Assembly: GCF_003334305.1 (NCBI RefSeq)
Contig: NZ_QOWS01000011.1
Strand: one strand, 5' to 3'
DNA length: 64,000 nucleotides
Source: Escherichia coli
GTDB taxonomy: Bacteria; Pseudomonadota; Gammaproteobacteria; Enterobacterales; Enterobacteriaceae
The position numbers and the translations under genes are program-made. Within the stretch, counting starts at the first letter, position 1. Every line of letters starts with the position of its first letter. This document shows positions 4,276 to 34,774 of this stretch, piece by piece. Below the pieces are notes generated by a model. It was not told where the DNA came from and made no database searches. It saw only the letters and a program-made list of their open reading frames with translations.

Positions 4276-4304
4276 AAAAGGGATACCTTTTCGGTATCCC
4301 TTTT
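4276..4304 (-). terminator. Hairpin terminator just downstream of fyuA
   Basis: Perfect inverted repeat aaagggatacc/ggtatcccttt with a 5-nt loop, flanked by A and T runs, 8 nt after the fyuA stop codon. Confidence 0.6.
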
Positions 4305-4311
4305 ACAATAA

Positions 4312-6333
4312 TCAGAAGAAATCAATTCGCGTATTGATACCGACGGTGCGACCCATATTGACCTGCGCGACGGCGCTGCTGCCGTTCATGTAGCCATAGG
4401 TACGGTAACGACGGTCGAACAGGTTATCGACATAGACGGAAATGTTCATCCGTTCAGTCGCCTGCCAGCCCAGGCTGCTGTCCAGGGTGGCATAGGTGCC
4501 TTGCCGCAACTGGTTGTCGCCATCGAAATAATGCGGCCCGACCAGATTAACCGCCAGTCGGGGCATCAGTGCGCCATAGCGCGTATCAATCACGCCGTTC
4601 ACGCTGCTTCCCGCGCCATAACGTGGTACGAACGGCACCCGGTTACCGTGATACAACTCACTGTCATTGGTGAATTCGGAACGGATCACGTTGCCATTGA
4701 TATCCCATGACCAGCCTGGCGCAAACCGCCACTTCGCTTCAAGCTCAACGCCGGTGGCGTCGGCTTTACCCGCATTGCTTAATGTCTGCATCCCGACCGG
4801 GCCAGAGTAAAGCTGCATGTCTTTGGTGTGGGTATAAAACGTCGCGGCTTGCAGCGTGACGTCAGCGGTTTCGTAGCGGGTGCCAAGTTCATAGTTGATG
4901 GATTTCTCGGCGACGAACGGTTTGGCATCAAGACCCGCAGTAGGCACGATGTTGTACCCGGAAGGTTTATATCCCTGGGCTACACGGGTATACACTCTCC
5001 AGTCATCGGTCAGCATATAGCCTGCGGATAGCTGCCCGAGCACCTGATCGTCATTGCTCTTACCCTGGTCGCCAAACGGGTTGCCGAGCATGCTGCCGTG
5101 ATATTGTGTACTGGATTTATCATGCGAGAAGCGCACGCCGCCGCCGATATCAAAACGATCGGTTAAATGCCAGGTCAGGTCACTGTATGCGGCCAGCGTT
5201 TCAGCGGTGGTATAGCCGGTACTGCTTAAATAAGGCATTGTCGGCATGTCGTAGGCTGAATTTAACTTCTCGCGGGTGTTCTGCCGGTACAGCCCAAACA
5301 CCATATCAACGGTACGCGCATCGCCCAGGGTTGCGGCGCGCAGCTCCTGCACATCCTGATTCCAGCGCTGAGGCATATTGACGATTAACGAACCGGAAGG
5401 GAAGGCGCGCGAATAATGCTGCTGCTGCCAGGCGCTGATCAGGTTGAAAACCCAGTCATCGGTGGTGTATTTCCCACTCAGGGTCTGGCTGTCAGTGCAG
5501 CGCCGCATGTACGGGTCTGGTGAACCATCGCTGATCGACAGCTTACGGCCCTTAATATCATTCCATCCCACATAGGCATCCTGGGTGGCGCGGGTACATT
5601 CGCGTGAGGCGGCAAAGCCCATTTCCCAGGGCTGATCGTCCGGCGCCAGACGCAGTTTCACATTCCCTATGCTGGCGCGGGTGCCGCCTAAGTCATCGCT
5701 TCCCGTCGCGGGGTTAATCATGTCGCCGTCATCAACCTGGCGTAACAGGGTGACGCTGCCGTACAGCAGGCCATCCTGAATGGGGCCGCTCAGGTTGAAC
5801 TTACTTCGATAACTGTCGCGGCTACTGACGCCGCCTTCAATATAGCCGCGCGGCGTGCTGTCCGGCTGCTGGGTGACGATGTTGATGATCCCGCCCTGAG
5901 CGCTTTTGCCATATAACGTTCCCTGTGGGCCTCGCAGCAACTCCACGCTTTGCACATCGGTAAGCGCCTGGATGGTGTTGGTGGAAAGCTGAGGGACGCC
6001 ATCGACATACAGGGTGACGGCGGGGTTATAGAAGTCCTGCGCTGAAGAGACGCCGCGTAGCGAGATCGTCGAAAAAAGCATGTTGCCGCTATTTTCAATA
6101 TTGAGCCCGGGCAAGACTCTGGGGAGTTTGTCGCTGGCGGTGACGCCGGCGTCGCTTAATTCCGGCGCGCTGACAACAGTAGACGAGACGTTGTTGGCTG
6201 ATGCCGAGCGGGAAGATTGTTTACTGGCGGTAACCACCAGCGTGCTTTCGTCTTGCTGTGAAGTCTGGGCATTAGCAATGGCGGGGAGCAATAATCCCCC
6301 CAAGGCCAGAGGATAAAGCCGTGTCATTTTCAT
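4312..6333 (-). CDS. fyuA: TonB-dependent outer-membrane receptor for ferric yersiniabactin/pesticin
   Basis: 673-aa ORF with signal peptide, TonB box (STLVVTAS) and C-terminal ...RIDFF; size and position match FyuA/Psn. Confidence 0.95.
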   Translation of the reverse strand: MKMTRLYPLALGGLLLPAIANAQTSQQDESTLVVTASKQSSRSASANNVSSTVVSAPELSDAGVTASDKLPRVLPGLNIENSGNMLFSTISLRGVSSAQDFYNPAVTLYVDGVPQLSTNTIQALTDVQSVELLRGPQGTLYGKSAQGGIINIVTQQPDSTPRGYIEGGVSSRDSYRSKFNLSGPIQDGLLYGSVTLLRQVDDGDMINPATGSDDLGGTRASIGNVKLRLAPDDQPWEMGFAASRECTRATQDAYVGWNDIKGRKLSISDGSPDPYMRRCTDSQTLSGKYTTDDWVFNLISAWQQQHYSRAFPSGSLIVNMPQRWNQDVQELRAATLGDARTVDMVFGLYRQNTREKLNSAYDMPTMPYLSSTGYTTAETLAAYSDLTWHLTDRFDIGGGVRFSHDKSSTQYHGSMLGNPFGDQGKSNDDQVLGQLSAGYMLTDDWRVYTRVAQGYKPSGYNIVPTAGLDAKPFVAEKSINYELGTRYETADVTLQAATFYTHTKDMQLYSGPVGMQTLSNAGKADATGVELEAKWRFAPGWSWDINGNVIRSEFTNDSELYHGNRVPFVPRYGAGSSVNGVIDTRYGALMPRLAVNLVGPHYFDGDNQLRQGTYATLDSSLGWQATERMNISVYVDNLFDRRYRTYGYMNGSSAVAQVNMGRTVGINTRIDFF

Positions 6334-6387
6334 TGTTGTGAGTCCCTGTAAGACGGCGAAACGCCAAAAATACCGACAATGGTGAAT

Positions 6388-6452
6388 TGAAAATGATAAC
6401 TATTTCTAATAGTGGTGCTACCCGAAACGGGTTTATTTCAACCTGTTTCGGG
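6388..6452 (-). promoter_or_regulatory. fyuA promoter region: Fur-box-like AT-rich site plus YbtA repeat sequence
   Basis: Fur-like gaaaatgataactatttctaat (6389-6410) followed by inverted repeat cccgaaacggg(N10)cctgtttcggg (6421-6452), nearly identical to the repeat upstream of irp2. Confidence 0.6.
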
Positions 6453-6463
6453 TCGGTTTGCGC

Positions 6464-33141: not shown

Positions 33142-33279
33142 GAGTAACTGTTTTCTAACCTCACAACCAGACTGTCCAAAGACAATTGAGTCGCTCTTTG
33201 ATTCCTCTGTGACTCTATTGTCTTCTTTTGGGATAAAATAGGTGTTTTTCGTCATGAAGTTGATAAAAGTCTATATAGA

Positions 33280-33300
33280 ACCACCTCCTGTGGAGGTGGT
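33280..33300. terminator. Hairpin between convergent ybtS and int
   Basis: 9-bp perfect stem accacctcc/ggaggtggt with 3-nt loop; weak T-richness, so terminator function is uncertain. Confidence 0.35.
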
Positions 33301-33334
33301 GGTAATTTGCCAGAGTGTGGGATTCGTTAGTATA

Positions 33335-34597
33335 CTATGGGATAAACTTATTTTTACCAATTGTATAAGGCGGTGCATAAGATTCTCGGCATGCTTCCAG
33401 ATAATCCGACCACCACTGCATCATCGCTTTGCGGGCTTCCAGGTGCTCTGCCTTATGAATATAAGCCATGCGCACGGTATTGCGCTCCTGATGACTCATC
33501 TGGCGTTCTACTGCGTCCTTTGCCCATAAACCCGATTCCATCAGCGCACTGCATGCCATTGCCCGGAAGCCGTGACCGCAGATATCCTTTTTCGTGTCGT
33601 AACCCATCACCCGCAGTGCCTTATTGACCGTGTTTTCACACATTGGCTTATACGGGTTATGGTCGCCGGGGAAGATCAGTTCATTATTACCGGTGATATC
33701 CTTAATCTGTTTCAGAATGGCGATGGACTGTTCTGAGAGGGGGACGATATGCGGCATTCGCATTTTTGCCCCGCGGCCGGAATAATGCACGCCAATAATG
33801 GGTTCTCGCGTCGCGGGTATCGTCCAGACTCGGTTTGTGAAATCAATCTCTGACCAGCGGGCGAAACGCAGTTCACTGGAGCGAATGAACACATGCAGCA
33901 TCAGCAGAACGGCATGCCGGGTCAGTTCACGGCCCTGATGATATGCCCCAATACGTTCAAGCAGTTCAGGCAGCCGCTCCAGCGGCAGGGCAGGATAGTG
34001 CCGTCTGACAGGAGGTGTGGTCACGCCGCCAAGGTTTGCTGCAGGGTTCGTATCGATTAACTCCTGATGGACCGCATGGCGTATTATGTTACTCAGGTGC
34101 TGCCGTGTGCGGGACGCAACCTCCAGCAGACCTTTTTCCTCGATCCCTTTCTGCAGGTCAATGAAATGACGGGGTTTAAGTTCTGATACAGGTAGGTTCC
34201 CGATGACCGGAAAGATGTGATTGTTCAGGCTGGCAAGCAGACGGTCGGCGGTGTTCTGCGACCATTTCCTGTTACTTTTATGCCACGCCAGCGCCACGTT
34301 TTTAAAAACTTTCTCCGGTGTTCGTGAGCCACGTACAGCAGCCCGCTGCTGTACCGGGTTGATATTCAGCGCCAGCATTTTACGGATACCTTCACGTTGC
34401 TGTCGCGCATCAGACAGGGAGATGGCTGGATAGGCACCCAGCGCAATGCGGGATTCTTTACCGCTAATACGGTATTTGAGATACCAGTGGCGGGAGCCAC
34501 CCGGCTTGACCCGCAGATACAGACCGTGAGAATCGGAGACTTTAAAGGGTTTATCAGAAGGCTTGAGGGTGCGGATTTTTGCGTCGGTAAGGGATAT
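33335..34597 (-). CDS. int: P4-family tyrosine integrase of the HPI; canonical start position carries ATA
   Basis: Exactly 420 codons from ATA (34597-34595) to the stop. The N-terminus reads (I)SLTDAKIRTLKPSDKPF... in frame with the 347-aa track ORF; catalytic box ...HGFRAMACS.... The first ATG in frame is at 34378. Confidence 0.85.
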   Translation of the reverse strand: MSLTDAKIRTLKPSDKPFKVSDSHGLYLRVKPGGSRHWYLKYRISGKESRIALGAYPAISLSDARQQREGIRKMLALNINPVQQRAAVRGSRTPEKVFKNVALAWHKSNRKWSQNTADRLLASLNNHIFPVIGNLPVSELKPRHFIDLQKGIEEKGLLEVASRTRQHLSNIIRHAVHQELIDTNPAANLGGVTTPPVRRHYPALPLERLPELLERIGAYHQGRELTRHAVLLMLHVFIRSSELRFARWSEIDFTNRVWTIPATREPIIGVHYSGRGAKMRMPHIVPLSEQSIAILKQIKDITGNNELIFPGDHNPYKPMCENTVNKALRVMGYDTKKDICGHGFRAMACSALMESGLWAKDAVERQMSHQERNTVRMAYIHKAEHLEARKAMMQWWSDYLEACRESYAPPYTIGKNKFIP

Positions 34598-34757
34598 ATG
34601 GGGGTCACTCCATTATCGAACTAACCTGACCCCAGATTTGACCACCAATTTTTCCCGATGCGTAGGGTAAAATCAAAATGCACCGAGAAGAGTTTTCACA
34701 CTAACCTGTTGAATCAACATCAGATAAAGATTCGCAAGGATGCAAGAAAACAGAAAA

Positions 34758-34774
34758 TTGGCTCCTCTGACTGG
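34758..34774. repeat. 17-bp att core at the tRNA-Asn 3' end (single copy)
   Basis: ttggctcctctgactgg overlaps the tRNA 3' end; no second copy found by eye between 3300 and 4320. Confidence 0.6.

Follow-up and report, generated by a model that had tools for sequence, protein, structure and literature searches.

The 64,000-nucleotide stretch of Escherichia coli contig NZ_QOWS01000011.1 analyzed here (the window) carries, between a tRNA-Asn gene and a remnant of yeeJ, an eleven-gene yersiniabactin (ybt) locus and a P4-type integrase gene, which together almost certainly represent the High-Pathogenicity Island (HPI) of Yersinia in its E. coli-type, chromosomally fixed form, 31.5 kb in length and inserted at asnT. 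Over its first 45 kb, the window matches with 100% identity, in reverse orientation, the chromosomal sequence (NZ_CP028767.1) of E. coli strain A7, a fecal commensal isolated from an orangutan. An initial annotation, made from the sequence alone, had proposed a complete HPI with eleven intact ybt genes at positions 4276-34774. Our open reading frame (ORF) listing and the RefSeq annotation of NZ_CP028767.1 by the NCBI Prokaryotic Genome Annotation Pipeline (PGAP) reproduced all eleven genes with their order, their orientation, and every one of their sizes, and all biosynthetic and transport frames are intact (11/11 full length). The word "complete" holds for the siderophore module and not for the mobile element, the fyuA-side end of which is cut, with a single attachment (att) repeat left and excisionase and transfer genes not found.

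The minus-strand genes begin with fyuA (4312-6333; 673 amino acids [aa]), annotated as the TonB-dependent yersiniabactin/pesticin receptor and scoring 497 bits, over the cutoff, with TIGR01783. It is followed by ybtE (6464-8041; 525 aa), the salicyl-AMP ligase, which matches the aryl-acid adenylating family and falls under the NCBIfam equivalog cutoff for dihydroxybenzoate (DHB)-AMP ligase, as expected of a salicylate enzyme; by ybtT (8045-8848; 267 aa), a type II thioesterase matching the "YbtT" entry 6BA8 of the Protein Data Bank (PDB) over residues 1-267 with 617 bits; and by ybtU (8845-9945; 366 aa), the thiazolinyl imide reductase (TIGR01761, 532 bits versus a cutoff of 189). The two megasynthase genes, irp1 (9942-19433; HMWP1, 3163 aa; Pfam and annotation) and irp2 (19521-25628; HMWP2, 2035 aa; Pfam and PDB fragments), and ybtA (25819-26778; 319 aa; ORF listing and annotation), encoding the AraC-type activator, complete the set on this strand. 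The YbtA C terminus has matches to the regulators FtrA (NF006902) and TIGR04094, both far under their cutoffs.

On the plus strand lie ybtP (26945-28747) and ybtQ (28734-30536), each encoding an ABC half-transporter of 600 aa (the former from PDB 6P6I chain A, the latter from annotation and NCBIfam), ybtX (30529-31809; 426 aa), a major facilitator superfamily transporter gene, and ybtS (irp9; 31837-33141; 434 aa), the salicylate synthase gene, which matches the TIGR03494 equivalog with 682 bits versus a cutoff of 325. YbtX matches the RhtX/FptX family under the cutoff and is named a yersiniabactin-associated zinc transporter by PGAP. For ybtP, PGAP places the start at 27035, giving 570 aa, 30 codons later than the ATG at 26945 that yields 600 aa. 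The 600-aa form is the better reading, because the solved YbtP chain (6P6I_A) is itself 600 aa long and aligns over residues 1-600.

The hidden Markov models of NCBIfam include no ybt-specific models, return family-level names, and offer none for YbtT, and the sequences of solved structures were therefore used to establish protein identity. FyuA is identical to the Y. pestis pesticin receptor 4EPA at 651 of 653 residues, and YbtS is identical at 431 of 434 residues to Irp9 of Y. enterocolitica (2FN0) and at 432 of 434 to 5JY9. YbtU scored 829 bits against the "YbtU/Irp3" entries 4GMF/4GMG, and YbtU, YbtT, YbtP, and the HMWP2 fragments all gave full-length matches to solved Ybt proteins near the self-score. 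Solved fragments of HMWP2/Irp2 tile irp2 at residues 14-93 (2N6Z), 101-546 (7RY6), 1381-1491 (5U3H), and 1475-1910 (7JTJ).

Pfam searches, run on overlapping segments (three for irp1), resolved HMWP2 into ArCP (22-82), Cy1 (150-535), A (575-1008, resuming at 1348-1382), PCP1 (1412-1474), Cy2 (1530-1905), and PCP2 (1952-2013), with the A domain split by a methyltransferase (MT)-like insert at residues 1182-1279. The order in HMWP1 is KS (27-515), AT (551-846), MT (1093-1194), KR (1559-1729), ACP (1823-1888), Cy (1948-2266), a second MT (2593-2693), PCP (2832-2894), and TE (2915-3139). Both are the textbook Ybt orders known from Walsh-laboratory work. Low identity to Ybt proteins or another domain order in irp1 and irp2, the two observations named at the outset as grounds for doubt, were looked for, and near-identity and canonical orders were found instead. 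A distinct island of nonribosomal peptide synthetase and polyketide synthase (NRPS/PKS) genes, resembling ybt in layout only, has nothing in its favor beyond the generic family-level matches of NCBIfam. The chance of this is vanishingly small, given identities of at least 99% to solved Yersinia Ybt proteins, the canonical domain order, and irp1-fyuA DNA that is 99.7% identical over 10.4 kb to the plasmid-borne Klebsiella ybt locus, and we rejected a different NRPS/PKS island on these three counts.

Upstream of the ybt operons, a consensus scan recovered Fur-box-like sites in 3 of 3 control regions, with 4 to 6 mismatches to the 19-mer consensus. These lie at 6389-6407 in the fyuA promoter (minus strand), at 25673-25691 in the irp2 promoter (minus strand, 4 mismatches), and at 26850-26868 (4 mismatches) within the divergent ybtA/ybtP control region (26779-26944). 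An inverted repeat, ACCCGAAAC..GTTTCGGGT, precedes fyuA on the minus strand (6416-6440) and is common to the irp2 promoter, where a search with the 25-mer placed the same ACCCGAAAC..GTTTCGGGT at 25699-25723 (minus strand). The 25-mer has two matches in the window versus none expected from shuffles, and a degenerate third copy (18 of 25 positions, by eye) is present between ybtA and ybtP at about 26817-26841. The ybt promoters are controlled by Fur and YbtA, and these putative motifs fit that control.

The pathway that these genes would support is taken from the established Ybt pathway, and what we read in this DNA are the genes, the near-identity of their products, the domain orders, the motifs, and the borders. 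Under iron limitation, Fur repression would be lifted and YbtA would activate the promoters of fyuA, irp2-irp1-ybtUTE, and ybtPQXS. YbtS would convert chorismate to salicylate, which YbtE is predicted to adenylate and load onto the ArCP domain of HMWP2. HMWP2 and HMWP1 would then join three cysteines to one malonyl unit, in a process that includes three cyclizations as well as methylations. The middle thiazoline would be reduced by YbtU, YbtT would act in editing, and the TE domain would release yersiniabactin. Uptake of metal-yersiniabactin would proceed through the TonB-dependent FyuA and then through the YbtPQ ABC importer.

At the other end of the island, tRNA-Asn(GTT) occupies 34759-34834 on the minus strand (tRNA search and annotation), and we identify it as asnT because of synteny with K-12 (mtfA-asnT-yeeJ-yeeL-shiA, with mtfA and serU beside it). 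An Rfam scan detected a tRNA as the sole RNA family within the island. The P4-type tyrosine integrase gene next to it (33335-34597, minus strand) is open over 420 codons and encodes arm-DNA-binding (residues 3-87), central (98-191), and catalytic (224-384) domains according to Pfam. A motif search placed the 17-bp att core, CCAGTCAGAGGAGCCAA, at 34758-34774 (minus strand), where it forms attL at the 3' end of asnT, and this core, CCAGTCAGAGGAGCCAA, equals the published attO (PMC2801613). The integrase and its position beside tRNA-Asn are thus as the initial annotation had them, and the integrase-side end that it gave, 34774, is the outer end of the att core. In another E. coli strain, DA33133 (NZ_CP029574.1; our locus L005), an HPI integrase and ybtS beside tRNA-Asn are flanked by nac, not mtfA. 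That island thus occupies another of the asn tRNA copies, and ATG is the start codon of its integrase.

The fyuA-side end of the island required correction. Position 4276, given initially as the boundary, corresponds to the final T in the terminator of fyuA and to the end of the conserved ybt module, and island DNA reaches 3308/3309, about 970 bp further. The terminator, a hairpin followed by a T-run (AAAAGGGATACC-GAAA-GGTATCCCTTTT; 4276-4304, minus strand), was read by eye only, as a terminator scan left this hairpin unreported. When the last 30 nucleotides of fyuA were used as a contig query, the only matches were to representatives of Salmonella enterica subsp. diarizonae and Klebsiella michiganensis, and in both the similarity to the window ends at or just past the fyuA stop or terminator (about 4279 in S. 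enterica subsp. diarizonae). Downstream of fyuA lies an AT-rich tail (3309-4311; 33% G+C) that is linked to the island and is not E. coli core DNA. Its 3310-4275 portion occurs in 2,255 of 5,426 complete E. coli genomes, close to the 2,260 island carriers, and had no counterpart in K-12 either by global alignment to the asnT-yeeJ spacer or by local blastn. On K. pneumoniae plasmids, the tail adjoins fyuA with an identity of 96.6% (blastn) to 96.8% (megablast). The Klebsiella tail (NZ_CP031790.1; our locus L008, 10386-10594) has about 209 bp extra relative to the E. coli island, at window positions of about 4015-4026.

Comparison by blastn with the K. pneumoniae ybt plasmid and with K-12 placed the right-hand deletion junction at 3302-3309, with the three sequences printed together. 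Similarity to the Klebsiella island extends to window position 3302 (L008 up to 11308), and similarity to K-12 yeeJ begins from 3308 (our locus L002, from 5214). The two blastn ranges overlap by 7 bp, of which 1 bp (G) is truly shared as judged by eye. The printed junction reads ...ATAGATACCCCCCTG/TTACGCAAACTC..., with the slash marking the point of joining, and the island accordingly spans 3309-34774 of the window (31,466 bp).

An ORF of 249 aa on the minus strand (2912-3661), which PGAP labels "inverse autotransporter beta domain-containing protein," runs across this junction and is chimeric. Its residues 1-118 derive from the first island gene beyond fyuA, and the rest is yeeJ from about codon 74, in frame, because the right-border deletion joined the island gene to yeeJ. 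In Klebsiella, the first island gene beyond fyuA encodes a 295-aa hypothetical protein and is followed by an AlpA-type excisionase gene. By tblastn, residues 1-106 of the hypothetical protein match window positions 3622-3305 at 96%, and the PHROGs collection has no family for it. The NCBIfam inverse-autotransporter match is confined to residues 118-226 of the chimera, the yeeJ part of which is shortened by a further internal deletion. The chimeric ORF is conserved in about 2,230 E. coli genomes. The yeeJ remnant (864-3308) is heavily decayed relative to K-12 and is flagged by PGAP as frameshifted and partial; it lacks about 3.7 kb of Ig-like repeats (K-12 L002 5546-9238) as well as the 3' end (L002 11673-12125).

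The integrase gene carries a change of its own, in that its start codon (34595-34597) reads ATA and not ATG. The frame is closed by a TAA 6 codons upstream of the ATA, and no canonical start is met in it before M74 (34378), so that an ORF begun canonically reaches at most 347 aa and the 420-aa product, which PGAP still annotates as the coding sequence, is available only from the ATA. A protein begun at M74 would lack the greater part of the arm-binding domain. In four other E. coli alleles, the codon at this position is ATG. A 90-mer spanning the ATA was found unchanged in at least 801 of the 2,323 genomes with the integrase region, among them the type strain ATCC 11775. A sequencing artifact at this codon is rejected because the identical 90-mer recurs in those 801 genomes, which likewise makes the ATA a real, lineage-wide allele. 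Our literature searches found no mention of the start-codon change. Initiation at ATA in E. coli, in work attributed to Hecht et al. in 2017, is said to run at about 1% or less of that at ATG, and integrase output is probably very low. The ATA start should be of little functional consequence, because attR is already gone. We tentatively raise the possibility, which we consider rather doubtful, that the ATA is a second lineage-wide lesion that silences a recombinase now without use or throttles it to trace level, or that the island-yeeJ fusion gives an expressed chimera in all HPI-positive E. coli. If true, the ATA lesion would record a domestication of the island that proceeded by steps once the att site had been lost.

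An HPI with full mobility, whether of the Y. pseudotuberculosis type or of the type of the integrative and conjugative elements (ICEs) ICEKp and ICEEc1, would be able to excise and transfer with its own integrase and excisionase, and the three-domain integrase beside the tRNA gene, together with a perfect attL, is in keeping with such an element. The rest of the anatomy makes it very improbable. A search for the att core allowing up to 3 mismatches found no second copy in the 64-kb window, and attR is absent. Of the Klebsiella AlpA/Xis, TraR, and neighboring proteins, none had a tblastn match in the window beyond the truncated hypothetical gene. There is no room for genes of a type IV secretion system (T4SS) or of mobilization (mob), since the island is directly followed by yeeJ, yeeL, and shiA, the K-12 order of which also excludes a second att core with contiguous island DNA past the left end. 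Moreover, the island stops at 3308/3309 in a truncated gene fused to yeeJ, the integrase start is ATA, and the literature calls this form fixed (PMC2606025). With no attR, xis, or transfer module, a mobile HPI or ICE is rejected at the sequence level. The fixed element is thus predicted to be unable to move by site-specific recombination, its attR, excisionase, and any transfer module having been lost in the deletion into yeeJ. Schubert et al. in 2009 described a unique right-border deletion in which the direct repeat was lost and the adjacent backbone was hit, in all HPI-positive strains of the E. coli reference collection (ECOR) except ECOR31, and concluded that the island is fixed and spreads in E. 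coli by homologous recombination of large flanking segments (PMC2606025).

This form of the island is widespread. At least 80% of window positions 1-25000 was found in one place in 2,260 of 5,426 complete E. coli genomes (about 40%), and 2,261 records matched this segment at an identity of at least 99%. The island sequence is identical or nearly so in many clinical isolates. In composition, the ybt genes are at 59% G+C versus 47 to 49% in the flanks.

Some observations weigh against an island that is both of Yersinia type with a working siderophore locus and immobile. Intact frames would also be compatible with inactivating missense changes in the siderophore genes, the likeness to Yersinia was established from protein comparisons and not from Yersinia genome DNA, and ATA can initiate weakly, so that some full-length integrase may be made. 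The first of these leads to a ybt locus that is structurally intact yet silent or nonproducing, through missense changes or regulatory decay, a reading to which the fecal commensal orangutan isolate as host lends some color. We regard it as unlikely, since 11 of 11 frames are full length, the promoter motifs are conserved, and the sequence is shared with clinical isolates.

From 35 to 64 kb, the window consists of unremarkable E. coli core genome with mtfA, serU, zinT, msrPQ, hiuH, hprRS, hchA, a porin gene, dcm-vsr, dgcQ, rcsA, and fliF-R. K-12 has the cytochrome b561 gene yodB between zinT and serU; the window lacks this gene, and about 1 kb of K-12 sequence is replaced there by about 220 bp (window 36363-36584). 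The small RNA genes rseX (44795-44884) and DsrA (53220-53306) are at their expected core positions, and the porin gene beside rseX, near 43367-44482, is an intact coding sequence in PGAP without a pseudogene flag.

The island is a major virulence and fitness determinant of extraintestinal pathogenic E. coli (ExPEC), serving in the acquisition of iron, copper, and zinc, and its presence in an orangutan fecal isolate is relevant for strain typing. No new mechanism emerges from this analysis, the value of which lies in a corrected anatomy and in the case for annotating the island as fixed rather than as a mobile element that is complete. The view of the initial annotation that this is a well-characterized ybt HPI and not a new system is borne out by the annotation, the matches to solved proteins, and the domain orders. 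The island was already known, as was its right-border deletion, in which the direct repeat disappeared (published by Schubert et al. in 2009). What goes beyond published knowledge is confined to annotation-level points, namely, the exact junction, the chimeric ORF, the ATA start, and the ybtP start.

Among known systems, the HPI of Y. pestis and Y. pseudotuberculosis (in the pgm locus) has the same ybt genes in the same order as the window and likewise a P4-like integrase next to an asn tRNA gene and the 17-bp att core, with proteins about 99% identical. In Y. pseudotuberculosis, the HPI has kept both 17-bp repeats. The Yersinia HPI keeps an AT-rich right part with the excisionase, whereas in the window about 1 kb of the right part is left, and both attR and xis are missing. 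Between its two 17-bp repeats, ICEKp of K. pneumoniae carries int and ybt, then xis, the genes of a virB-type T4SS, oriT, mobBC, and cargo genes, with int and xis being shared by the Yersinia HPI (PMC6202445). ICEKp and ICEEc1 of ECOR31 have in common with the window int, ybt, and the first ~1 kb past fyuA, including the 5' part of the hypothetical gene, at 96 to 99.7% DNA identity, whereas the xis, virB-type T4SS, oriT, mobBC, cargo genes, and second repeat of ICEKp have no equivalent in the window. The E. coli-type HPI at asnT, known from ECOR and ExPEC strains, has the same site, the same 11 ybt genes with int, and the same fyuA-side deletion (PMC2606025), and the window is identical or >99% identical to about 2,260 complete genomes. 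Nothing essential differs between the two, the window allele being distinguished by its ATA integrase start; the affected backbone gene is yeeJ here and is left unnamed in the text of PMC2606025. The element in the window shows every defining feature for which we looked and belongs to the E. coli-type fixed HPI.

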